Origin: Squalus acanthias
Lineage: Eukaryota
Length of the DNA stretch: 64,000 bases
Assembly: GCA_030390025.1 (NCBI GenBank)
Contig: CM059432.1
Coordinates: forward strand, 54,996,001 to 55,060,000
Direction: 5' to 3'
Below the pieces are notes generated by a model. The model was given only the letters and a program-made list of their open reading frames with translations. It did no database searches and was not told the origin of the DNA. Shown one piece after another: positions 23,901 through 40,000 of this stretch (positions within the stretch are counted from its first letter, which is position 1; each line of letters begins with the position of its first letter). A program made the position numbers and the translations under genes.

Positions 23901-25560
23901 AGTGGTTGAGGGGGTGGGTGGTTGGGGTGCTTGGGTTGACGTGCGCTCCTTGCGCTTGGCTCCACTTGCTCCCAGAGAAGGGACTCGAGCTGTTCGGCAC
24001 CTTCCTCTACTTTGTGCCGTCTTCAGCCAGGGATTCCCAGGAGTCGGTGGGGATGTTGCACTTTTTCAAGGAGTCTTTGAGGGTGTCCTTGAAGTGTTTC
24101 CTCTGCCCACCTGGGGCTCTCTTGCCGTGTCGGAGCTCCGAGTAGAGCACTTGTTTTGGGAGTCTCGTATCGGGCATGTGGACGATGTGACCCATCCATC
24201 GGAGCTGATCGAGCGTGGTCAAAGCTTCGATGCTGGGGATGTTGGCCTGAGCGAGAACACTGATGTTGGTGGGCCTATCCTGCCAATGGATTTGCAGGAT
24301 CTTGCGGAGGCAGCATTGGTGGTACCTCTCCAGTGCTTTGAGATGCCTGCTGTACATGGTCCATGTGTCTGAGGCATACAGGAGGGCGGGTATCACTACT
24401 GCTCTGTAGACCATGAGCTTGGTGCCGGGTTTGAGGTCCTGGTCTTCAAACACTCTCTTCCTCAGGCAACCGAAGGCTGCACTGGCACACTGAAGGCGGT
24501 GTTGGACTTCGTGATCGACGTCTCCCCTTGTTGACAGTAGGCTCCCGAGGTATGGAAAGTGGTCCACGTTGTCCAAGGCCTTGTCATGGATTTTGATAAT
24601 CGGGGGGCAGTACTGTGTGGCGGGGGCAGGTTGGTAGAGGCCCTTTGTCTTATGGATATTAAGTGTAAGGCCCATGCTCTTGTACGCTTCAGTGAAGGTG
24701 TTGACGATGGTTTGGAGTTCGGCCTCCGAGTGTGCGCAGACACAAGCACCGTCTGCATACTGTAATTCGACGACAAAGGATGGAACGACCTTGGATCTGG
24801 ACTGGAAGTGATGGAGGTTGAACAGTTTCCCATTTGTTCTGTAAATTAGCTCCACTCCAGCGGGGAGCTTACTGAGGGTGAGATGGAGCATTGCAGCAAG
24901 GAAGATCGAGAAGAGCATTGGTGTGATGACACAGCCTTGCTTGACCCCGGTCCGTACGTGAATTGGGTCTGTGGTGGAACCATTGGTCAGGATCACGGCT
25001 TGCATGTTGTCGTGAAGCAGGTGGAGGATGGTGACAAACTTTTGAGGGCAGCCAAATTTGAGGAGGACACTCCATAATTCCTCGCGGTTGACAGTGTCGA
25101 AGGCCTTTGTGAGGTCAAAGAAGGCCATGTACAGCGGTTGGTGCTGTTCCCTGCATTTCTCTTGTAACTGATGCGCGGTGAAGATCATGTCCATTGTGCC
25201 CCTTAGTGGACGGAATCCGCATTGCGACTCTGGGAGGAGCTCTTCAGCCACTGGGAGAAGGCGATTGAGGAGGATTCTTGCGATGACTTTCCCTGTGGCA
25301 GACAGCAGGGAAACTCCTCTGTAATTACTGCAATCGGACTTGTCAACTTTCTTGAAGATGGTCACAATTACGGCATCTCTAAGATCCCCTGGCATGCTCT
25401 CCTCCTTCCAGATAAGAGAAATTAGTTCATGAATTCGCGCCAGTAGTGCTTTAGTGCCTCGGCAGGGATTCCATCTGCTCCTGAGGCCTTGTTGTTCATC
25501 AGTTGTCGGATGGTCTTTTCAACCTCATGCCGGGCTGGGGTTGTGCTGAGGTGGTGGCGG

Positions 25561-26243
25561 TGAAGTGGAGTATTTGAAATAAACACTCGACACCAGGTCT
25601 GCGTTCGAAAATTCAAGCAGTCTTTATTCGCACGGCTGGGGAGACAACCTGCTATCTGTCTAGCCAGGCTTCTCTCCAATGATACAAAGTTTTAAGCAGT
25701 CTTTTATACAAAATTTTGGTACATAATTAGCCTCATGCACGATCCATCTTAACAATTTGATTGGGTTTTGCCCCGCGTGCACATTTACTGATTGGTTGCC
25801 TGTGCCGCGTTACATTAAGGTACCGCCTTTATTACCGGAAAAGTATATGTCCGTTATCACCGCAAGCTGTTGTTGCACCTATGACCTTTGTTTATGCCAG
25901 ATGGGGTCTCACCAACATTGTACTTCTGACTCATTGTCCTGCTTTCCTGCCTCTCTAGGCCTTTTTACTTCCAACTCATTGTTCTACTTTCCTGCAAGAA
26001 CAGAACTTACATCCTCTAGGCCTCTTATGGTTCAACGTCTGACTATTTGCAATTGTCTCCAAGTGACACAGCTTGCAGTTGTTAATCATTCTAACACTAC
26101 TGCAAAATTAATATGTTATTCTTAGGTTATCTCAACTGCCAGTTAAGCAACTTAGAAAAAGCTTACTACTGCAAAGGCCTATTAGCTCATTCGATTCCCA
26201 TTCGTAACCCGTAATTATAGTAGAGCTCGAAAGCCCCACTTCA
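25561..26243 (-). repeat. ERV 3' LTR (683 bp)
   Basis: 8-bp terminal inverted repeat. On the minus strand: two CCAAT boxes (~25760, ~25793), TATAAAAG (~25701-25708), AATAAA (25623-25628). Confidence 0.93.
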
Positions 26244-26255
26244 GTCCCCCCTTTT
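26244..26255 (-). promoter_or_regulatory. Polypurine tract of the ERV
   Basis: Minus strand AAAAGGGGGGAC directly abuts the TGAAG start of the 3' LTR. Confidence 0.9.
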
Positions 26256-26476
26256 GGTACTTGCACAATAGTTCAAGTAAACCACCCAACCCACACACTT
26301 CCTTTTCCCATTACAGCTTGAGTGATCAGCTCAATTTGGTCATAGGAGGCGTGTGACTTCAGGTGTGGCAAATTGTGAGAATTATTGTTATTTCATCCTT
26401 CCCCTGCCATTAATTAAAAGCCTACCACTACAAGAGCCCATTAATCTATTTGTTTCCTATGCTTATTCTTAGTAAC

Positions 26477-28492
26477 TCAGATCATTCCAGAGTGCATGAA
26501 TTTTTCCTGTTCCTTAACTAAAGCTTTTGCCTTTCTCTTCCTCTGTACTCTTTTACATCCCGCACATGCCATTATGAGCAACATTATTACCAATATAAGT
26601 TGCACGATTACCAATACATGTGAGATTATACGAATCCATGGATGTATATCAACATTCAGTCCCCAATCCCCTACACGTTCCCACCATTGAGTGTCTTTCA
26701 GGGTTTCTTCGATGTCCTTTGAATGCTGTATGGAATCTTCCAAGATCTCATGATAATGTCGTATGCTCTTCTCAGTGTCCTTTTTCAATTGAGTCAGGTG
26801 CTCTTCGAGACGTGGAATGTCTTGCCAACTCGATGTCACATATTGTTCCATTTCATCATCCCATCTCTGGTTGCTGAAGGTGAAGTTCTCGACGTGTTCC
26901 TCTTTTCGTGGGAATAGGTGATGATGACCTAGCTTGGCCACAGGTTTAGGCATAAAACAAAAGTCAGGTCGTGGGATTGCACATTCAGTACCACCATGAT
27001 CGTACTTATTTTCATTGGTTGATATACAGTATGTCCCATTACCCCGGGCTGCCACCTTGGTTCCTCTATGACTGAGGGGACTAATTTCCAACGTGCAATT
27101 AACCGTCTCAGTGAACCCGCACGTCGTGCATTGCCCTCCCTCCATGGGGTGTGCACATACTACCACATCTAAATATTGAGTGCAACCTTCGATTTGCACC
27201 CCCTGGAATGTGTCACTTTGTTTTACCGCATAAGGGGCGTATCGTGGAATTTTACCCGGATTGACCTTGTATTTCGCCTATATTCTGTACTGCCCACAAA
27301 GGTTCGGCCTCCGAGACCTCTATTTGTGGAATAGCTAAAATCATACCTATCAGTTTCAGTTTTTAGTAATGCAATTACTTGGAGATAGGAACACTTGTGT
27401 TGTCTTCCGCACATCGCAGAGGGCAATACCGTCGCGTGTCCATTTGGACAACTGATCATTACTTATCCAATCGGGTATCTTACCCTGTTTCATCTGGTTT
27501 ACATTATGTTGGATATTCCCTAGTAACCATGTGCCGTACATTGCACATACGAGTTCTTTATGTGTTACTTGGGTTAGATCATTCAGTCGTGCACTTATTT
27601 TATTAATGGTTTAGGCATGAGGCTCTAGGATCTCCTCGACCTGTAGCATCTGTCTAGCGATTTCTTCCCCTGTTCCTGATTACCGGGAAGTCAGATCGTT
27701 ACCCTTCTTCAGCAGGGTCCTTAAGCGTTGAGCTATGTCTTGGACTTCTTGGTCTATACTGCTTATGTCAAAGGTGTTAACAGTTGCCACCCCCACCGCA
27801 TACCCTGCTCCTGCCATTTCTAGTATCCCCCTCTTTTTCCTATTTAATTGCCCTTGTGGTCCTATTAATTGTTTCTTTAATAAATTCTCCCATAATCCCG
27901 TCGTGTGTTTATCACATTGCTCGGGTAAGGCTATCCCGCTGATATTAAGGGCAATTTTAATCGTTCGGTGGGACATTCCAAAATATCCCACCTTTCTGGT
28001 TTGTTTCACAGCCAGACCTCCTCGGGCTCCCTCCCATATTTCGGGACATGGCAGAGGGGGCGGCGGGGTTGGCTTCTGTCCCTTTCTTATTTAATACCTT
28101 CCATTTGATTTACTACATGTAACGGTGTCCTCGTCCGCGCCCCGGCGTTGTCGTGGGGGCGCTGTGTCTAGGCATTCAATGGACACTGCATCTATTCGTC
28201 GTGTCCTACTTATGATGCCTCTATTTCCGTGCCAAGTAACATATCCCGTGGAATTCCATTTTAGTAACACAGTAAATCCCACACTCCCCGTTCCCTCCGG
28301 CAAATGGTGGAAGACCTCCGTCCCATCTGTAAGCTTGCCGCCGTCTGCGTAGCTCACTTGGAGTTCAGTTCCGGTTTTTACGTAACGGTGTCCTTTATGG
28401 TCATACTCCTCAATGTTTGGTGCGTAATATAGGGACTTGTTTCCGCTTGTGACAGCGAGGGTTGTAAGAATAATCTATCGGATATTTGCCAT
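26477..28492 (-). pseudogene. env: env-like class I fusion glycoprotein resembling paramyxo/pneumovirus F (~670 codons; several stops, compensating frameshifts)
   Basis: ORF pieces starting at 28357, 28009, 27541 and 27199 share the frame of ATG 28492. Signal-like MANIR*IILTTLAVTSG; furin sites RQRR (28142-28153) and RKKR (27830-27841); fusion peptide GILEMAGAGYAVGVATVN; heptad repeat; GKIPDWISNDQL; Cys-rich region; second helix; TM IISHVLVIVQLILVIMLLIMAC; basic tail. Confidence 0.85.
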
Positions 28493-28512
28493 GTTGATCG
28501 TTGACCTGTGGA

Positions 28513-29413
28513 TTAAAGCATACTCTGGTCGTCACCAGGGGTTATTATTTCTTCTTGTACTATCTCTTCCCTTTCCAACTGGTCCCGCTGAGATCGGTCA
28601 ATGATCCAGCGAACCCACATCCACCAGAAGAGGAGTAGGGTACATCCTACTCCTGCGACTATGGCTATTTGGACGCTGGCCTTTCCCCATACATCAGCCC
28701 AAGTCCTGTTGTCCTCCAATACTATCTCTGCCATTGCTCCATAGGTGTCTCTGAAACAACATAGTTAAGACATACCAGACATATTGAATAGCCTCCCTTG
28801 CATCTAATACAACATCATGTAACATTGACAACTCACTCGGAACCAACACCAATCCGTTAATTGGAGCAGGGAATGGGATGGGGCACTTTGCACTCCCCTC
28901 ATTGGGTGGCATTGGTTTCTCTTTTGCCTTTAATTGAATGGCTTCTTTGGACTGATCAGGAACGATTTTTAATTTGAGGACCATCATGGGAGAAATTTCT
29001 GCTTACACACATATACTCCTGTGTGATTACTTGACCAGAAATTTGTCCAACAGCAACCTGTCCCATCAATTAGCGGGGTAGCTACGATTCCTCTTGCCTT
29101 CCTCAATTCAGGTTATTTGTGGTCTCACCCAGTGCAAACCGGAGTTCTAGGATCGTCCCGTCTTATTTGAGCATTTTAAACAAATCCTTTGCCCCTCATA
29201 CACCCTCTGCTCCGTTACCTTCACCATCCAATTATGACATGTTATAGTTTGATTTTTAATTGTTACATTCATCTCATTTACAACAGAAAACCCTGTATCC
29301 AGTGAGGTTATGGTTCCATTGGTGCTGTTTCCGAGCTGCTGTGATTCCTGATTTAGTTCAATCCCATCCACTACGAGCATCAAAGCGCTCAATGCGTACA
29401 GGAGTTTCCCCAT
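28513..29413 (-). pseudogene. Accessory type I membrane glycoprotein with a putative Ig-like domain (~300 codons, frameshifted)
   Basis: Signal peptide MGKLLYALSALMLVVDG; NST/NGT/NVT/NQT sequons; VYEGQRICLKC ... NHTGVYVC ... VLKLKIV across frames; Pro-rich stalk; TM IAIVAGVGCTLLLFWWMWV; acidic tail; stop 20 nt before the env ATG. Confidence 0.65.
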
Positions 29414-29899
29414 CCTGGAGCTGGTAATCTTGCACCATCAACACTCATCTGGCCCCCTGCTTAAAAGAAAAACAGACAATCCATTGCAGCTTTCCTAAGA
29501 GCCAAATGGGTTAATTCGTCAATCCACTCAAATTTAAAACTTAGAAATTTAACAATGCCCAAAATGTTTACAAAACCCACATCTGCTTGTGGAGTTAAAA
29601 ACAGAGTTCACAGCTGCTTGTGAAAAGAGTTAACTTTCTTTTGCATTTCAAAAGAAGACAAACACAGACATCAATCACTGTCAGGTTTGGTCATACAACT
29701 TCACAGCTTTCAAGTAAATCTTTACTTTTGCAAAGCCTTGTACCTTTAAAATGAGATATCCTAAACATTCTGTGAAGCAACTCCACACAATAGCATTTCC
29801 TTTTTTCTTTTTTTTCCTTTTTGGTCCCCCATACTTGCAATTAGTCAAAAATTTCCAAAAATTGTTGATGTGTTTTTGACACATATCCGGAACTAGTAG

Positions 29900-32800
29900 G
29901 ATAGCAAAATACTGCGGATGCTGGAAAATTGAAACAACAACAGAAAACGCTGGAAAAACTCAGCAGGCCAGGCAACATCAGTGGAGAGAGAAACAGAGTT
30001 AATGTTTCAGGTCAAAACCCTTCGTCAGAACTGAGAAAAAAGCAGGAAATGAAACAGATAAAAAAGGAAGGGGGAGGCTGGGGGGAGGAATAAAAGAACA
30101 AAAGGGGTGGTCTATGGTAAGTAGAGACATTAAGAGATGCTCAAGGCAAGACGGGATGGTAATGGGACAGGTTGAGAAACAAAAGGTGGCTCAGAAGTGT
30201 GAAGTGTGAAATGCTGGCAGAATGAGAGACAGCTGCCTTGGGGGAGAGAGAGAAAAAAAGGGAAAAGGCACAAACCAAAAGGGTGGATAAAATGTATATA
30301 TATACATATATGTGGTAGGGGCCGAGGTTATGATCTGAAACTGTTGAACTCGATATTGAGTCCGGAAGGCTGTAAAATGCCTAATCGGAAGATGAGATGT
30401 TGTTCCTCGAGCTTACGCTGAGCTTCCGTGGAACAATGCACGAGGCCGAGGACGGTGAGGTCTCAATGGGCGTGGAGAGGTGAATTAAAATGACAAGCGA
30501 CCGGAAGCTCGGGGTCACCCTTACGGACTGAACGGAGGTGTTCCGCAAAGCCGTCACCCAATCTGCGTTTGGTCTCCCCAATGTAGAGGAGACCACATCA
30601 TGAGCAGCGAATACAGTATACTAGATTGCAAGAAGTACAAGTAAATTGCTGTTTCACCTGGAAGGGGTGTTTGGGGCCCTGGAGAGTGGGAAGGGGGGAT
30701 GTATAAGGGCATGTGTTGCATCTCCTGCGCTTGCACGGGAAGGTGCCGGGCGAGGGGGAAGGGGTGCTGGGGGTGATAGAGGAGTGGACTAGGGTGTCTC
30801 GGAGGGAGCGGTCCCTACGGAATGCAGAAAGGGGAGGTGAGGGGAAGATACATTTGGTGGTGGGATCACGTTGGAGGTGGCGGAAATGGCGGAGGATGAT
30901 CCGTTGAATGTGGAGGCTGGTGGGATGAAAGGTGAGGACAAGGGTAACTCTATCGTCGTTCCGGGAGGGAGGGGCCGGGGTGAGGGCAGAAGTGCGGGAG
31001 ATAGAACAGACACGGTCGAGGGCCGTGTCGACCACGGTAGAGGGGAATCCTCGGTTGAGGAAAAAGGAAGACATGTCGGAAGCACTGGTATGGAAGGTGG
31101 CATCGTCGGAGCAGATGCGGCGGAGATGGAGAAACTGGGAGAAGGGAATAGAGTCCTTACAGGAGGCGGGGTGGGAGGAAGTGTAGTCCAGGTAGCTGTG
31201 GGAGTCAGTGGGCTTGTAGTGAATGTTGGTCAATAACCTATCCCCAGAGATGGAGATGGAGAAGTCGAGGAAGGGAAGGGAAGAGTCAAAGATGGACCAT
31301 GTGAAGGTGAGGGAAGGGTGGAAATTGGAGGCAAAGTGAATGAAATTGTCTAGTTCAGGGCGAGAGCAGGAAACGGCACCGATACAGTCGTCAATGTACC
31401 GGAAAAAGAGGTGAGGGAGGGGACCCGAGTAGGACTGGAACAAAGAGTGTTCCACATATCCCACGAAAAGGCAGGCATAGCTAGGACCCATGCGGGTACC
31501 CATAGCAACACCTTTGATTTGGAGGAAGTGAGTGGAGTCAAAGGAGAAGTTGTTCAATGTGAGAACAAGTTCAGCCAGGCGGAGGAGGGTGGCGGTGGAT
31601 GGGGACTGGTTGGGCCTCTGTTCAAGGAAGAAGCGGAGCGCCCTCAGGCCATCCTGGTGGGGGATGGAAGTGTAGAGGGATTGTACGTCCATGGTGAAAA
31701 GGAGGCGGTTGGGGCCAGGAAACTGGAAACTGTTAAAGTGGCGGAGGGCGTCAGAGGAATTGCGGATGTAGGTGGGAAGAGACTGGACAAGGGGAGAAAA
31801 AATAGAGTCGAGATAGGAAGAGATAAGTTCCGTGGGGCAAGAACAGGCTGAAACGATGGGTCTACCAGGGCAGTCCTGTTTGTGGATCTTGGGAAGGAGG
31901 TAGAAGCGGGCTGTGCGGGGTTGGGGAACTATGAGGTTGGCGGCCGTGGGGGGAAGATCTCCAGAGGAGATGAGGTCAGTGACAGTCTTGGAAACGGTGG
32001 CTTGATGTTCGGTAGTGGGGTCATGGTCCAGGTGGAGGTAGGAGGAGGTGTCGGAGAGTTGGCGTTCAACGTCCGCTAGGTAGAGGTCGATTCGCCAAAC
32101 AACAACAGCGCCACCCTTGTCAGCAGGTTTAATGACAATGTCGGGGTTGGATTGGAGAGAATGGAGTGCTGCAAGTTCAGAGGGAGGTAGGTTGGAGTGA
32201 GTGAGGGGAGCAGAGAAATTGAGATGGCCGATGTCATGGTGGCAGTTAGCAATGAAAAGATCTAGAGAGGGTAAAAGGCCAGAGGGAGGGGTCCAGGTGG
32301 AACGAGAATTCTGAAAGCGGGAGAAAGGGTCAGCCGTGCGGGGGAAGACTCCTGGCCAAAGAAGTGGGCACGGAGACGAAGGCGGCGGAAAAAGAGCTCA
32401 GCATCGTGCCGAGCTCGAAATTCGTTGAGGTGGGGGCGTAAGGGGATGAAGCTCAGGCCTTTGCTGAGGACTGATCATTCAGGGTCAGAGAGGGGAAGGT
32501 CAGAGGGGATAGTGAAAACGCGGCAAGGGGTGAGATTGGGAGAAGGGGGGTCAGAGGAAAGTGAAGGGGAAGAAGGTTCCGGAGGGGCGTTAGTGTCCAA
32601 GAGTTGTTGAAGCTTGCGATCCTTGACATCGGAAAGGAAGAAGAAAAGTTTTTGTTGAAGCGTCGGATGAGTCTAAGGATGAAATGGAACTGTGGACCCG
32701 GACAGCTTTGAGATAGAGTGCGTCGGTGCTGCTGAAGAGAGAGGTCGAGAGTGTTCATGTGGCGCCGCATGGCGTTGAGCGTGGATCTCAAGATGCGGCG

Positions 32801-32928
32801 AGAGCAGTAGTTCGAGGAACGATGAATATCTTGGAGATATTTGTAATCCTGGGTGGATCCGAAACACGAAGGGTGGAAGTTTAGTTGGAATCCACGTGGG
32901 ATAAGTCGGAACCGGAGACAGTTGCTGA
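29900..32928 (-). mobile_element. Penelope-like element (RT + GIY-YIG endonuclease), 5'-truncated, inserted in the ERV
   Basis: ORF 30598-31692 with DVQSLYTSIP, GVAMGTRMGP, FRYIDD. GIY-YIG LVYCIRCS..LLYIGET follows. Direct repeat GGAACTAGTAG at 29889-29899 and 32929-32939. Confidence 0.93.
29997..30032 (-). ncRNA. Minimal hammerhead ribozyme motif (degenerate) in the Penelope terminal repeat
   Basis: AGTT-CTGACGA-AGG(GTTTTGA)CCT-GAAAC-ATT-AACT; the stem III palindrome is mutated (ACGT to ACAT). Confidence 0.65.
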
Positions 32929-33447
32929 GGAACTAGTAGCTTCCACACAAATTTACACCAACCAGAATTTCACCGTGGCCACAATAAAAGTCTGATTTTA
33001 ATAGGTTAATTAACCTCATAACTCCAATTCAATCCAGATCACTTTCTTAAACTAACCAATATCACTTGAAAAAGAAAGGAAGAAGCCACAGCCACATTAA
33101 CAAAGAAACAATGATCCATGCCTTATAAACATTCAAATTCATTTTCCTCCAGGCACATTGGCAATTGTAACTTCAAGGCTGAAGCTTATCTTTTGTAAAA
33201 CAATTAGCAAACTTAAAACAGCACACGCTTGTCCATCGTTCAAGACATGTCTTCAAAGGGTTAAACAGCTTTTAGCTCTTTGTACAGAAAAGTGGGTGGA
33301 GCTGAAACAAACACACCAGACACTTTCTTTCAAAGACAGAAAACTACCACACTTTTAACACACACTTTCACACAAACTGAGATTTCAACATTCTTTTCTG
33401 ATCCTTTCACTCAGCAAACCTTGTGTTTTACTTGTTTTGGACAGAAA

Positions 33448-33804
33448 CTAATAGCTTCGTGTCGGTAAAACTTTAATTTTTCCCTTATTCCTTTTCTTAA
33501 ATTGCCTCCACAACTTATTCTCCCAGTCATATCTCACTTGCGGTTGCAGCATGCAGTTCCATCCGTCCCCTTTATTTCCCTTTGGGATTACCCGCACCTC
33601 TCCTGATTTATCCTCTCCTGCTGCGCCCCACAAACAATCATTATGCCAGTCCACTATCGCATTGTGGGCCAGCCTCCAATCAGAGCCTAGCACCCCATGC
33701 CCTTCCTTATCCCAATTCATAAGAACATATTCCCACTTTGATTCTAGTCCCCCTACCTTAACTTTTAAAGGTCTTGATACCACCCCTGCCTTTTGGTTGC
33801 CCAT
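33448..33804 (-). pseudogene. pro: C-terminal half of a retroviral aspartic protease
   Basis: GHGVLGSDW matches the ILGRD-type motif of retropepsins; the catalytic D[TS]G half is absent; fused to gag sequence at ~33800. Confidence 0.65.
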
Positions 33805-34826
33805 CGTACTAGGTCATCATATGTTTGCATTGTGACCAGACCGGTTTTTAATATGGCTTGGTGAGCGCTACTTAGTCCCTCTTTATACATCTTTTGAAAG
33901 GCTAGGTTGTTCTTGTCGGGTTGTACCATGCCTGAACGGGCCAGAAAACTGGTCCATTTTCGTTCTCCATAGTCGAGTGCGGACTCCTTTATTTTGAGTG
34001 AACCCCATTATTATTCCCTAGTTTATGGGTACTACTCCCATAACTCGTGTAACCTTGCCTCTGAACAGGTCGTAACTTGCCTCTTGTTGGGCAACTGTGG
34101 GTGCCACTTCATCGCACCATATTCCGTCCCTGAAATTTTGGGACCATTTGTCCCCACATAGCCTCGCTCATTTTTGCTCTGACTAATCCTGCAACATCAC
34201 GATTGTGAAAGTTGTGGCATATTCGCATTTCCTTCATTTTTTGCCAAAATGCCCCATTACTCTGTCTGGGTTTTAAATCAGGTAGTATTTGCAGTAATTT
34301 TAATTTATCACTCGGTGAGAATGACACATAAGTTGTTTTAATCTGTTGAGCGCCTGCAAGGGTGCCTCCGACATCCGCAGCTCCAGGTATGAACTCTACC
34401 TTAATGGGGGCTGCTGGCATTTGTTTCCCATAAGGGGGTGGTCCGTCCCACCCATGGTCTCTGTCGTAATCAGCTGCCTTTCTACCTAAGTCTCCCCAAT
34501 TTACATCGTCGTCGTCCTGTCCCTTTTTCTTATTTGATACCGGAGGGGCAGTAGCCATTACCGGCATCCGTGTTCACTTTGCACACCCGTCCTTAGTCCA
34601 ACGTCGAGTACGTCTACTCAATTCATAATACGCGCGAGTAACTAAAACGAGGGCTTTTTCCTCTTTTTGTCTCTTTTCCGACTCCCACCATTTCCTTTGA
34701 TCGGCGGGTGGGTCGTCGGGTTTCCAATTTGACTTAATCATGTTTTCAATTAGTTTCTGATTCTTGTCTGCTAGGTACCGCGTCAAGGACCCCTCCGGTC
34801 CCTACTTGAGTTTTTCCACTTCCCAT
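33795..34826 (-). pseudogene. gag: gag (MA, late domain, CA; NC missing), frameshifted
   Basis: Located after the PBS; possible myristoylation start GCC-ATG-GGA (MGSGKT); ATAPP and GPPPY motifs; CA-like YVSFSPSDKLKLLQILPDL...FWQKM and TYDDLVRWAT. Confidence 0.72.
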
Positions 34827-35122
34827 GGCTATTCGTTGTCAACGGTACGTCTCTTACTTACTCCCACAGAGTGAGACCGTTAATTGCAACTTATACCAAT
34901 TATTAATCGCAACGTTACACAGACACTTCGACATAACCGATCGTAATCGTTTCACTTGGGAACTACTGCAGACTAGTTGAAGTTTCGGCCAGACTTGCAG
35001 ATTCGGATACCTGGGGTGGCTGACACAGGACGACTTCCACTCTGTCCTTACTAAGTGTGGTAATTTCAAACGTACTCACACGGTGGCTTGGTTTTGTCCG
35101 CCTGTGTCCTCCGTCCGTAGGT

Positions 35123-35140
35123 ATCCTGCCGACTATGCCA
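35123..35140 (-). promoter_or_regulatory. Primer binding site, tRNA-Ser
   Basis: TGGCATAGTCGGCAGGAT, 2 nt from the LTR end; 17/18 match to the complement of the vertebrate tRNA-Ser 3' end as I recall it (TGGCGTAGTCGGCAGGAT). Confidence 0.85.
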
Positions 35141-35142
35141 AC

Positions 35143-35605
35143 TGAAGTGGAGTATTTGAAATAAACACACGACACCAGGTCCCTGCATTTCTCTTGTAAT
35201 TGACGCGCGGTGAAGATCATGTCCATTGTGCCCCTTAGTGGGCGGAATCCGCATTGCGACTCTGGGAGGAGCTCTTCAGCCACTGGGAGAAGGCGACTGA
35301 GGAGGATTCTTGCGATGACTTTCCCTGTGGCAGACAGCAGGGAAACTCCTCTGTAATTACCGCAATCGGACTTGTCACCTTTCTTGAAGATGGTCACAAT
35401 TACGGCGTCTCTGAGATCCCCTGGCATGCTCTCCTCCTTCCAGATAAGAGAAATTAGTTCATGAATTCGCACCAGTAGTGCTTCTCTGCCATGCTTTAGT
35501 GCCTCGGCAGGGATTCCATCTGCTCCTGAGGCCTTGTTGTTCTTCAGTTGTCGGATGGCCTTTTCAACCTCATGCCGGGCTGGGGTTGTGCTGAGGTGGT
35601 GGCGG
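35143..35605 (-). repeat. Duplicated segment: 39-bp LTR end (35143-35181) plus a copy of the 3' RTE flank (35181-35605, equivalent to 25149-25560)
   Basis: Direct comparison shows about 11 substitutions and a 13-bp indel between the two flank copies. Confidence 0.92.
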
Positions 35606-37061
35606 TGAAGTGGAGTATTTGAAAAAACACTCGACACCAGGTCTGCGTTCGAAGATTCAAGCAGTCTTTATTCGCACCGCTGGGGAGACAACCTGCTATC
35701 TGTCTAGCCAGGCTTCTCTCCAATGATACAAAGTTTTAAACAGTCTTCTATACAAAATTTTGGTACATAATTAGCCTCATGCACGATCCATCTTAACAAT
35801 TTGATTGGGTTTTGCCCCGCGTGCACATTTACTGATTGGTTGCCTATGCCGCGTTACATTAAGGTACTGCCTTTATTACCGGAAAAGTATATGTCCGTTA
35901 TCACCGCAAGCTGTTGTTGCACCTATGACCATTGTTTATGCCAGATGGGGTCTCACCAACATTGCTGTAGGATAGGGTGTATATGTATGATTTAGTAAAA
36001 CATTTTTGTATAACTATAATATGTGAAATTGTATGTTAAAAGCCCAAAAGCCTGTATAAAATGGCGAATGGCTGAGAGAAAAGCAGGATGGGAAATTATG
36101 CCAACCTGACTGAAACTCGCTCTGTTTTCAATTACTGAAGTAATGGAATGTAATGCTAAGTTTATGGGGACTATCAGGAACGTGGTATTCAGTAATGTGA
36201 TAGAAAAGAGATAAGAGTTGGATAGAGAGAGATAAGAGAAGCACCTCTCAGTGATACTACTATAAAATGGACAGATTGTTTAGACAACATCTTGGGAAAT
36301 GGTTTTTGGAAAGAGAACATCTAAAGAAAAAGGACCCTTTGATATGCACAAAGCGAGTCCGAGTGGGATCAACAAGGTCATAAAACATGTACTAGGTGTC
36401 GGATAGCTGTTTGCAGTCACGTAGGCAAAGGGAAAAAAGTGTATAAAGATACGGATATTGAACACTGAAGGCAGCGCGAACCCAGAATCAGAGTTGAAGG
36501 AACTTCAGTCAAGCGAAAGCAGCAAGAGGATAAAGAGACCGCGCCACAGTCGCTCGGAAGGAACGCCGAGGCTTAAACGAGCAAGACTGTGACTATCTCC
36601 TTGTTAAGTATTACTTCTTTGTACTCGATGTTTAATGCTTAATAAACCTGTTTTACTTGTACACAATATACCTGTACCCAGAGTGGTTTGTGTAGTCACG
36701 GACAAATTATTATAAGAACTTTTGGAAGCTACATTGCACTTCTGACTCATTGTCCTGCTTTCCTGCCTCTCTAGGCCATTTTACTTCCAACTCATTGTTC
36801 TACTTTCCTGCCAGAACATAACTTACATCCTCTAGGCCTCTTATCATTCAACGTCCGACTATTTGCAATTGTCTCCAAAGTGACACAGCTTGCAGTCGTT
36901 AATCATTCTAACACTACTGCAAAATTAATATGTTATTCTTAGGTTATCTCAACTGCCAGTTCAGCAACTTAGAAAAAGCTTACTACTGTAAAGCCCTATT
37001 AGCTCATTCGATTCCCATTCTTAACCCTTTAATTATAGTAGAGTTCGAAAGCCCCACTTCA
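35606..37061 (-). repeat. ERV 5' LTR, interrupted by a foreign solo LTR
   Basis: 35606-35965 plus 36738-37061 is colinear with 25561-26243, with a few percent divergence. Confidence 0.93.
35966..36733 (+). mobile_element. Solo LTR (768 bp) of a different family
   Basis: TGTAG...CTACA termini; TSD TTGC (35962-35965, 36734-36737); TATAAAA at 36261; AATAAA at 36641. Confidence 0.88.
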
Positions 37062-40000
37062 GCAGGTTGCATGCTGCGGGATGGAGTTGAGGACACTCAC
37101 ATCGAAGACAGAGTCTCGGTTAAGGAGATCTTCGAAGTGCTCCTTCCAGCGGGCACTGACTGCCTCCCTGTCCCTGATGAGTACCTCACTGTTCTTGGCC
37201 CGCAGTGGGGTAGGACCTTGGGTGCTTGGGCCGTAGGTAGTCTTGACTGCGCTAAAGAATCCACGCATGTCGTGGTTGTCAGCTAGCTGCTGGATCTCCT
37301 GCGCTTTCTCCACCCACCATCTGTTCTTTAGGTCACGAGTTTTTTGTTGGACCTCAGCCTTCAGGCGTCTGTAGAGCTGTTTTCTTGCTCTCGAGTTGTG
37401 TTGCTGTTTCCACATCAGGAATGCCTTGCGCTTGCGGCTTATTAGCTCCTGGATCTCCTGGTCGTTCTCGTCGAACCAGCCTTGGTGTTTTCTGGTCGAA
37501 TGACCGAGCGTCTCTTCACAGGTGCTGATTATGGAGGCCTTGAGTGCAGACCAGACGCTGTGGACACTCTTGTGTCTCTACATCACTGGGAGTCGTCATG
37601 TTGGTTGTGAGGCACAGGCTGAATAGGCCTTTCTTAGCGGGGTCTTTGAGTGCTCCAGCGTTGATTTTCCTGTGGCATTGTTTCTGTTGTCGCCGCTGTT
37701 TTGGGGCTACATTGATGGAGATGACAGAGTGGATTAGGCGGTGGTCTGTCCAGCAGTCATCCGCTCCTGTCATGGCGCGGGTGATGCGGACATCCTTGCA
37801 GTCCCTCGCTAGGACGATGACGTAGTCCAGCAGATGCCAATGCTTGGAGCGAGGGTGTTGCCATGAAGCCTTGTACTTGTCTCTCTGACGGAACAAGGTG
37901 TTGGTTATGACAAGACCATGTTCTAAGCATTTCGTCAGGAGAAGGGTACCGTTGGAGTTGGCTTTCCCTACCCCCTCTCTGCCGATCACACCTCCCCAGA
38001 GGTCTGTGTCCTTTCAAACTCTGGCGTTAAAGTCGCCAAGGAGGATCAGCTTGTCACCCGTTGGGACTCGGACAGGGATTGTTCAAGGCTGGAGTGGAAT
38101 TCCTCTTTGGTCTCGTCTGTGGCTTCCAGTGTTGGTGCGTACGCACTGATGACCGTAGCGCACTGGTTCCGGGCTAGGGTGAGCCGAAGAGTCATGAGGC
38201 GCTCGTTTATACCGCAAGGGGAGTCTCTGAGACGCCCAACTAGTTCATTTTTATGGCGAAGCCTACCCCATGGAGGTGGCATTTTTCTTCAGGTTTGCCT
38301 TTCCAGAAGAAGGTGTAGCCACCGCCTTGCTCCTTGAGTTGGCCTTCCCCTGCCCGCCGGGTCTCACTTAGGGCGGCGATGTCAATGTCGAAACGTCTGA
38401 GCTCCCGGGCAATGATAGCAGTACGGCGTTCCGGTCTGTCACTGTTGGGGTTGTCCATGAGGGTCCTGACATTCCAGGACCCAAACTTCATTTTAAAGGG
38501 TGGAAGATGTCTGTGCGTGAATTCTTTTAACGTGGGGTGGCCATTGCACACCAGCTACCACACAGGCTTGACAGAGCAAGGTCTTGGTCCAATGGCAAGG
38601 GGATCCAAGACGATTGGAGACCAGGCTCTGCTACAACGGCCTAGCACACACACAAACATACTCCTACTGTCCTCCTCCCTCCTTCCCGCAGGTCTGCTCT
38701 GCTTGGGTTTCGTAGGATGCATTGTGGTCCTCACGACCTCGCTGTTGGCCCGTGCCGCACCTTCCCTGGGCCCCGACCCCGCTGCTGGTCCACACTGCGC
38801 CACTCCTGGGCCTTGACCTCGCTGCTGGGCTCGTCCTCGCTCCTGGGTCCCGGCCTCGGACATGAATGATGTTGTCTCTCACAAGATCAAATTAGCACTG
38901 ATATTCTGGTGAAGATTAGTCGGGGGGAGGTTAGTGGAGCCCCATCAGTTTTTTGTATTTGTGCCTGTATTTGTATCTGTATTCCTGGCCCTGAGCTCCA
39001 CTCGCACTCCCTGGCCCCGAGCTTAAAGGGTACTTAGACTGAAATGGACAAGACTTAACTTCTGTGGCGAGTTTAGTTTAGTTCGTACCTACCGCGCAAA
39101 TACAGCAACTTCATGCCATTTAATGCACTTCAATGGTGAGGCAGACAGTGAGATGCCGGTTTCACGAAGCTAATGGCGGAGTGGCGCATCTCGAACAGCA
39201 ACTGTTGGATTTCCGCCCTCACCTGAAGTTGCTGTAGCATTTGCACGTAAATAACGGTCAGCGCCAGTAGCCTCACTGTTATTTTGACAGCAAATTATGA
39301 CCCAATATGTTTTGATTACTGTGGGAATGTGAAAAAGTGGTGTGTTAGTGTTATTGATAAGAGGATTGGAGCTGTTTTTAGTTTTGGTGAATGGTTTGCT
39401 GTGGAAGCATCATTAGGATCAATTACGAGAACTGCAGTGATCTACCTTTGATGTACCAAATGTTAACATTGCTTGTCACCTCAATGCCTGTTCCACCTAA
39501 AGAAGTAGTTATTACAGCTCCTCAGAAAGGTTCAGCTGTTTTGCTTATTCCCATGTGTAATGAACCAACCACCTCCCAGGACGTTGCTTGTGCTCCTGAT
39601 TCTGATGTGAACTCTCCAGGACGATCTCTGAAGAAAGTTCTGCACCCTGACTGCTGAAACCGAAGCTGAGAAGTTACCATCTACTGCCCTTATTATAGAT
39701 GCTAGCTTACCCATTATCAATCATAGCCAAAGATATTAACAAAGGTCAAGGAAACCTCCAAATCATTTGGACTTGGAGATAGTTATGAGTGTAGTGATTT
39801 TCATTATGGTTCTAATGTTGGCATAACCCATCTTTCCCACGTACTACGTCATTGTAAGATATAGTCCCTGAATTTCTTAATTTTTTTTTGTTGTTAACCA
39901 GGCTCATACTTGGAGGTAATTATTTTCTCCTTGTTATTTTGAAGGGGAAACTGATAGGTATGGTACTTGCATATTGTTAACTGAACACTAGATGGCCCCA

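Follow-up and report, generated by a model that had tools for sequence, protein, structure and literature searches.

Paramyxoviruses and pneumoviruses pair a fusion protein (F) with a separate attachment protein (G, H or HN). Recombinant, non-autonomous endogenous retroviruses (ERVs) are mosaics of two lineages that have lost pol, exist in few copies and have their junctions at short identities. Lokiretroviruses, as described by Wang and Han (PMC7947760), share with the shark elements described here an F-related Env (signal peptide, furin site, fusion peptide, coiled coil and transmembrane [TM] segment) and a dual RNase H in pol, and none of three chondrichthyan genomes was positive for them; the one loki Env compared (n = 1) has no long N-terminal domain, whereas the shark Envs have one. 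Foamy virus Env likewise combines an F-like fusion fold and a receptor-binding domain (RBD) in one polyprotein, although the RBD is a new fold and not an N-terminal Ig domain, as described in PMC11468914. Snakehead retrovirus has short accessory ORFs, a likeness to the shark elements (PMC12193657).

The window analyzed here is a 64,000-nucleotide stretch of the Squalus acanthias genome. It contains an endogenous retrovirus on the minus strand that is defective and pol-less, with paired LTRs, primer binding site (PBS), polypurine tract (PPT) and target duplication all found. The ends of the provirus belong to one retroviral lineage (B) and its interior (about 33800-28775) to another (A). We propose, with a probability of roughly 0.9, that the locus is a recombinant of these two lineages, formed via template switching, copied a few times with enzymes supplied in trans and decayed afterwards.

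Structure of the provirus

The following features were assigned.

25561..26243, minus strand: 3' LTR
26244..26256, minus strand: PPT
26477..28492, minus strand: lineage-B env of the F-like family, with its own N-terminal region of ~140 residues and basic sites at 28153 and 27841
28513..28734, minus strand: lineage-B small ORF, 73 codons, open in the window
28768..28778, minus strand: right A-to-B recombination junction (~28773), common to six loci
28774..29413, minus strand: 5' part of ORF-X, being the first ~220 codons (~640 nt) of a lineage-A env
about 29900..32928, minus strand: Penelope-like retroelement (reverse transcriptase, RT), a later insertion into lineage-A non-coding sequence
33448..33800, minus strand: C-terminal remnant of a lineage-A protease, beginning at the left B-to-A junction and matching L036-L038 and proteins P0076 and P0079
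33792..34826, minus strand: 5' part of lineage-B gag, broken and truncated at the left junction
35123..35140, minus strand: PBS complementary to tRNA-Ser
35143..35605, minus strand: repeat of the RTE-like LINE sequence lying beyond the 3' LTR (~420 bp) and of the final 39 nt of the LTR
35606..37061, minus strand: 5' LTR (lineage B), containing a 766-bp insert at 35965-36730

Much of this framework had been recognized in a sequence-only reading of the locus and was confirmed: the paired LTRs differ at 20 of 645 aligned positions, the proposed serine PBS is complementary to a genomic tRNA-Ser, and the PPT is present. Gag and a partial protease are both there, the former broken and the latter a remnant only, and a stretch described as ~1 kb of non-coding sequence is indeed non-coding but is interrupted by the ~3-kb Penelope-like element, in which we recognized by eye what we take to be a GIY-YIG-type endonuclease motif. 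The 766-bp LTR insert was absent from every other fetched locus, and the flank duplication at 35143..35605 is probably a templated rearrangement that followed insertion. The provirus integrated in an RTE-like LINE and is flanked by a 4-bp target duplication with one mismatch. Among the six copies with both flanks read, this duplication measures 4 bp in two and 5 bp in four; 4 bp is the length given for Class I ERVs (gamma/epsilon, ERV1) in PMC4299795.

The two parents of ORF-X

Upstream of env, the earlier reading had placed ORF-X, a single frame said to run from a signal peptide through an Ig-like domain to a TM segment. The 20-nt gap that it noted before the env ATG is real, but the single frame is not: reading from the ORF-X start, the window's frame ends after 88 codons, and the TM is part of the separate 73-codon ORF (28734-28513, minus strand). 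ORF-X is not one gene; it is the front stub of a lineage-A env adjoining a lineage-B small membrane-protein ORF. The stub (28774..29413) encodes a signal, a glycosylated stretch with sequons, a probable Ig-like domain and the first F2-type strands. An Ig-like domain is plausible for the 5' part, on weak matches, and it is not joined to the TM in one frame.

The same division is seen in genomic copies, for which 40 stretches were fetched from ranked search lists of more than 100 candidates. In 33 of the 40 scored matches to ORF-X (146 candidates), only the 5' part was matched, ending at or before the junction, and just six matches crossed it. At L012 the 5' part runs on in one 556-codon open stretch into a furin site, fusion peptide and heptads, and 17 of the 29 other loci aligned at the junction also run on into the env-A core. 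The F-fold match itself starts at residue 193 of env-A, within the part that the window retains. All five aligned junction copies have 17-nt and 2-nt frameshifting deletions in common, both missing from the 25 other aligned rows (at the first site, one row shows an 18-nt gap). Read from the ORF-X ATG, the frames of the junction copies extend 88, 34, 46 and 34 codons, the fifth copy having no start. Openness in other copies was the test that the earlier reading had set for ORF-X, and an open frame was found in none of the five junction copies examined. Since the copies examined were a sample taken from ranked lists, an uncommon junction copy with an open frame may exist elsewhere in the genome or in another individual.

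The 3' half of ORF-X has its own context in lineage B. The small ORF encodes one hydrophobic segment from residue 23 and then an acidic tail. It lies directly 3' of integrase in pol-bearing lineage-B copies: pol 3' sequence precedes it in six of seven non-junction lineage-B loci, and at L022 the preceding ORF carries integrase domains. Acceptor-like splice sites precede both this ORF and env. Across 636 codons of the small ORF we counted one break where 4.5-8.9 would be expected (P 0.06-0.001), a count that is weak because three disrupted loci (L023, L024 and L026) were left out. On this analysis the small ORF fairly likely encoded a genuine accessory protein of the membrane. By size and place, Vpu and the pneumovirus SH protein would be its analogues.

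Env fold and lineage placement

The window env is broken by four internal stops and then by frameshifts. The signal, furin-like sites, heptads, Cys-rich part and TM attributed to it earlier were found, in a gene that is not intact. Its proposed likeness to F was upheld at the level of the family: env-A and env-B are homologous, and the env-A model matches human parainfluenza virus 3 F (Foldseek E 2.9e-8), WEHV1 Env (Foldseek E 2.3e-4) and foamy virus Env (PDB 8rm0; VIA Z 8.0, rmsd 5.6, 220 aligned). An Env family profile also reaches two PF00523-matching proteins; similarity to PF00523, the lokiretrovirus criterion, is in this way indirect, by profile reach and fold. Scanned directly against Pfam, pieces of env-A and env-B did not match PF00523, and Pfam and PDB sequence searches with env pieces gave no significant family (best F match, E 0.45). 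A CD44 match of one env piece (E~1) was treated as chance. A standard gamma-type SU/TM Env does not fit these genes: the fold is F-like, no immunosuppressive-domain Pfam match rose above the cut-off (GP41 only at E 0.069), and no CX6CC motif was seen in the window env translation.

The N-terminal head of env-A is probably an Ig-like domain, in cis with the fusion core. The Ig-like stretch (residues ~55-147, pLDDT below 50) matches Ig clusters of the Atlas at 0.79-0.81, which is lead level only, and an Atlas search with residues 18-200 gave no usable match. Ig_3 was found in three of six aligned heads and not in env-A itself, and 19 of 26 weak PDB matches of head stretches, picked by eye, were to Ig-family structures. 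Relatives carry the Ig-like head in cis, and we infer that it binds a receptor; P0023, P0030 and P0045 are among the relatives that are naturally open. The shark genes share the fusion-core fold with paramyxovirus and pneumovirus F and differ in having the candidate binding domain fused to it. The env-B head is left without a fold assignment because its model (N-terminal half of the window env) stays under pLDDT 50 throughout residues 1-167 and matched nothing in Foldseek at E<=0.001.

The earlier reading had likened the element to the lokiretroviruses; that label is supported neither by the RT motif nor by the RT tree nor, for lineage B, by the RNase H type. The window itself has no retroviral RT, and lineage-A pol was taken from L041. 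The pol at L048 was rejected for this role; it lies in the opposite orientation to the L048 env and belongs to a neighboring A-like element. The loki RT motif is present in neither parent lineage. In the RT tree (LG+G4, 43 of 82 rows after long and redundant rows were dropped, with no foamy RT included), the loki-motif RT P0112, whose loki identity is a by-eye motif match, falls outside a 100/98 clade containing A and B, so neither shark parent groups with loki-motif RTs. Lineage-B RT lies beside, not inside, a 99/97 clade of gamma/epsilon-like rows, with deep nodes loose, and an NYNRIN-like annotation is attached to relatives of the A-like RT (label only). RT identity between the two lineages is about 40-48%. 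For RNase H, lineage A has its highest score against the foamy enzyme, whereas the lineage-B thumb/tether/RNase H region scores far higher against MLV than against foamy virus (147 versus 44 bits, and 66 versus 17 bits in a second comparison); an RNase H of the foamy/loki group is therefore found in lineage A only, that of lineage B being MLV-like.

One further relative is the IMG/VR contig L056/L094, which we take to resemble snakehead retrovirus. The L056 RT shares a loosely resolved clade with lineage B (92/96), and the L056 Env scores 23 bits against the Env family profile and has an N-terminal stretch that is Ig-like in appearance. The L094 Env differs in being much longer, at about 1100 residues, and the small ORF had no tblastn match in L056/L094.

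Origin of the mosaic

On the proposed history, the shark genome was invaded by two retroviral lineages whose F-like env genes are homologous. Lineage A has a single env ORF with the probable Ig-like head in cis, and the layout of lineage B is gag, pol, small membrane-protein ORF, env. Their RNAs, if co-packaged, could have undergone template switches at short shared words during reverse transcription; the left (B-to-A) junction falls on such a short B/A identity. In this way a piece of a pol-less A derivative, comprising the protease remnant, non-coding DNA and the env-A 5' end, would have taken the place of the final part of B gag and almost the whole of B pol, before a switch back to lineage B immediately 5' of the small ORF. 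Enzymes acting in trans would then have copied the mosaic a few times before it decayed. The 5' halves vary among junction copies, L016 and L020 retaining lineage-B pol pieces, and the history therefore requires more than one exchange. Like known recombinant, non-autonomous ERVs, the shark element is a low-copy mosaic with no pol and short-identity junctions; it differs in that its parents are far apart in RT and that two env-derived segments stand in tandem.

We consider it very unlikely that the mosaic profited from the env-A stub as a source of a secreted, receptor-binding Ig-like fragment, a soluble cofactor or decoy in the manner of FeLIX or Refrex-1 that favored these recombinants. The deletion common to junction copies does close the frame shortly after the Ig-like stretch, and in internally deleted relatives a signal-plus-Ig frame of ~225 codons is preserved, with 3 breaks among 1633 codons versus 24 in 2179 in full A copies, a count that is biased because this well-preserved group was picked by similarity to that very region. 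Over the signal-plus-Ig stretch, however, 7 breaks were counted in 590 codons of the junction copies, and their pN/pS over the ORF-X 5' stretch (0.47) is that of the decay baseline; since broken copies also give 0.28-0.49, pN/pS cannot tell selection from decay. Just as improbable is a recombinant ancestor expressing three products, a secreted Ig-like env-A fragment, a Vpu/SH-like membrane protein and an F-like Env. If true, it would mean two-component entry or receptor blocking, with a soluble and not an anchored partner, in a non-loki shark retrovirus.

Slightly less probable again is an origin without template switching, in which proviruses already inserted in the chromosomes exchanged sequence by ectopic recombination or gene conversion and the resulting mosaic was never mobile as such. 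The window's 5' end carries a post-insertion rearrangement, the flank duplication, and two junction loci on contig C19 resemble a local duplication. The six junction loci are nevertheless spread over five different contigs, and the three copies with both LTRs fetched (the window, L016 and L018) have different flanks, each with its own target duplication, so that separate integrations fit; target duplications are distinct for three of the six junction copies so far.

The least credible reading makes ORF-X a separate membrane-anchored attachment protein, or a captured immunomodulator, working with the F-like Env: a signal peptide, sequons and a probable Ig-like stretch do precede a TM frame ending 20 nt before env, in a layout common to six loci, but none of the junction copies examined has ORF-X open, two common frameshifts and a stop at the junction lie between its 5' part and the TM, each half has its own parent in which it is part of another gene, and the 5' part ends in F2-type strands while relatives have the Ig-like head in cis. 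Because ORF-X is composite and not open in these copies, the attachment-plus-fusion cassette proposed earlier falls away; no separate open attachment gene is present, and the two halves come from different genes.

We found no description of the shark lineages A and B in the literature searched (mostly non-subscription papers, without Repbase). A retrovirus with separate attachment and fusion genes is not supported at this shark locus. Instead, we find an F-like Env on two non-loki RT lineages in one cartilaginous fish, and, together with foamy virus and fish retrovirus Env, this supports the view that the F-like fold is widespread among basal retroviruses, usually with its own N-terminal head. 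Lineage B adds, between its pol and its F-like env, a small protein that is a candidate membrane accessory, and the junctions document recombination between deep retroviral lineages that are only about 40-48% identical in RT.

A broken mosaic provirus

The sequence-only reading had described an endogenous retrovirus with two neighboring glycoprotein genes, ORF-X (a supposed separate Ig-like membrane gene for attachment) and an F-like env. Its account of the LTRs, serine primer site and PPT was borne out: the LTR pair has 20 mismatches over 645 aligned positions, the primer site matches genomic tRNA-Ser(AGA) genes, and the PPT lies directly before the 3' LTR.

Features of the mosaic provirus
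37061 to 25561, minus strand: provirus, with LTRs, primer site and PPT
28734-28513, minus strand: small ORF of 73 codons with its own ATG, read from sequence as the source of the ORF-X TM

The gag, partial protease, ~1 kb of non-coding sequence and env that it listed are likewise present, but all three coding regions are broken, the protease surviving as a remnant, and the non-coding stretch is divided by a Penelope-like element of ~3 kb. The window provirus lacks pol, and its 5' end carries a 766-bp insert and a duplicated 3' flank. The insert, which is AT-rich and lies in the 5' LTR (35965-36730), had no match among the fetched loci or in the rest of the window. The insertion site, marked by a 4-bp target duplication, lies in a near-complete RTE-like LINE, which the provirus splits into 24007-25560 and 37062-38550; the RT half of the LINE holds a 503-codon open stretch. 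Among the target duplications flanking these LTRs (window, L016, L018, L022, L031 and L034), two are 4 bp long and the other four 5 bp, so elements with these LTRs could have been moved by two integrases. Elsewhere in the genome, tRNA-Ser-matching sites form a large tandem array on contig C889 of G000, where many are spaced ~1.7 kb apart.

Origin of ORF-X

On comparison with its relatives, ORF-X reads not as one gene with a TM but as two things: the 5' part of env-A, the envelope gene of one retroviral parent (lineage A), and the separate small ORF of the other parent (lineage B), which gives the TM. The genome was searched with the ORF-X region, and of the best 40 of 146 candidates, which were scored, 33 matched the 5' part alone, with matches that stop at or before ~28773, the right A-to-B junction. 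At one locus (L012) this part runs on in a single 556-codon open stretch with a furin site, fusion peptide, heptads and Cys-rich region. Among 29 other loci aligned at the junction, 17 run on into the env-A core, 7 jump to distal env-A through a ~1-kb deletion, 1 has an interruption and the remaining 4 have the window's junction. Env-A is homologous to the window's env-B (identity 21-27%), and the ORF-X cut point aligns with a strand within env-B's F2-like part.

The junction itself was spanned by 6 of the best 40 of 93 candidates scored. Five aligned copies have 17-nt and 2-nt frameshifting deletions in common and a stop at the junction; frames from the ORF-X ATG reach 88, 34, 46 and 34 codons, and the fifth copy has no start. 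An open ORF-X was thus found in none of the sampled junction-type copies. On the left, B gag meets the A protease remnant at another junction, a short word that both share, so the window is B-A-B. The sequences show the segment parentage, the junctions and the common breaks. The two-glycoprotein cassette is a recombination artefact, carried by a provirus that is now dead; the halves of ORF-X come from different parents.

From general retrovirology, the mosaic would have arisen by co-packaging and template switching, and would then have been copied a few times by helper enzymes. Three of the six junction copies have distinct flanks and target duplications, which favors separate integrations. 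Further mosaics in the same genome (L030-L035, L008, L009, L013-L015) have env-A with a ~1-kb internal deletion, and some switch to env-B mid-gene; several retain a signal-plus-Ig frame of ~225 codons in which breaks are few, in a sample biased toward that region.

The small ORF was open in 8 of 12 aligned loci (73 codons in five, 66 in three); 1 was frameshifted near its end, 2 had an in-frame deletion and 1 was interrupted. Pol's 3' end precedes it in 6/7 lineage-B loci without the junction, and in L022 an upstream ORF with integrase domains overlaps its start. Frame and hydrophobicity are kept in two divergent variants, and selection tests were weak. From sequence, this candidate gene probably encoded an accessory membrane protein. 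The 73- and 66-codon variants (window 28513-28734; L021, L022, L025) are ~55% identical, each open and hydrophobic. In two copies (L023, L024) the ORF is mostly lost through an in-frame deletion between direct repeats. Candidate splice-acceptor-like, pyrimidine-rich sites can be read upstream of the small ORF (~28745-28755) and env (~28500-28515).

Envelope fold and lineage

The proposed F-like Env stands for env-A by structure and for the window's env by homology, because a model of the window env's own N-half found no structural match. An env-A model (natural stretch, 39-sequence alignment, mean pLDDT 58.8) matched paramyxovirus F by Foldseek (hPIV3 F, E 2.9e-8; 91 chains at E<=0.001). By VIA, it matched NDV F (Z 8.8, rmsd 20.5, 259 aligned), PIV5 F (Z 8.4, 7.0, 246) and foamy Env (Z 8.0, 5.6, 220), values near the tool's stated background yet above unrelated rows and in accord with Foldseek. 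WEHV1 Env also matches the model in fold, and PMC11468914 relates foamy Env to F. An env family profile built without two PF00523-matching proteins gives them scores of 62 and 54 bits. Sharks and skates supply the best named env relatives, which makes a cartilaginous fish the probable host.

The VIA matches begin near residue 190. A putative Ig-like head is suggested, in a stretch where the model's pLDDT is <50, and shark and frog relatives have Ig-like-type heads fused to the core. Varied N-terminal heads are fused to an env-A/env-B-type core in P0019, P0023, P0028, P0030, P0045 and P0048 (sharks, a skate, frogs), several being long open annotated genes, e.g., P0023 (Chiloscyllium), labelled Ig-like. 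In an IMG/VR contig that resembles fish retroviruses (L094:5632-9033), Env scores against the family, and its N-terminal stretch looks Ig-like.

Since the window lacks RT, the lineages were classified through relatives' RT, which did not uphold the suggested lokiretrovirus affinity. PMC7947760 assigns lokiretroviruses three genes, with smc as an optional fourth, and reports these viruses in 0/3 chondrichthyan genomes; its supplement shows a distinct RT motif, which we found in P0112 and P0117 and in neither A nor B. In a 43-row tree, A and B share a clade with 100/98 support from which loki-motif RT is excluded. B groups with contig L056 and gamma/epsilon-like rows, in an order that is not resolved, and A lies beside amphibian and coelacanth NYNRIN-labelled rows. 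B pol is MLV-like in thumb, tether and RNase H; A RNase H is foamy-like. Because the tree is without named foamy or epsilon references, A and B are placed as "not loki" and no further.

Searched literature held nothing pertinent on shark ERVs with an F-like or two-env layout. The element is not described in the available text of 10.1101/2021.11.23.469661 (gamma-type Env only), 10.1101/2023.10.26.564294, PMC13709493, PMC12583693, PMC4299795, PMC12193657 or PMC11521997.

The parents most likely entered cells by a single Env, whose N-terminal head would bind the cell and whose F-like core would fuse. The viruses behind the mosaic are of a modestly new kind: they join an F-like, probably Ig-headed Env to non-loki RT lineages, one of which has a candidate small membrane accessory gene.
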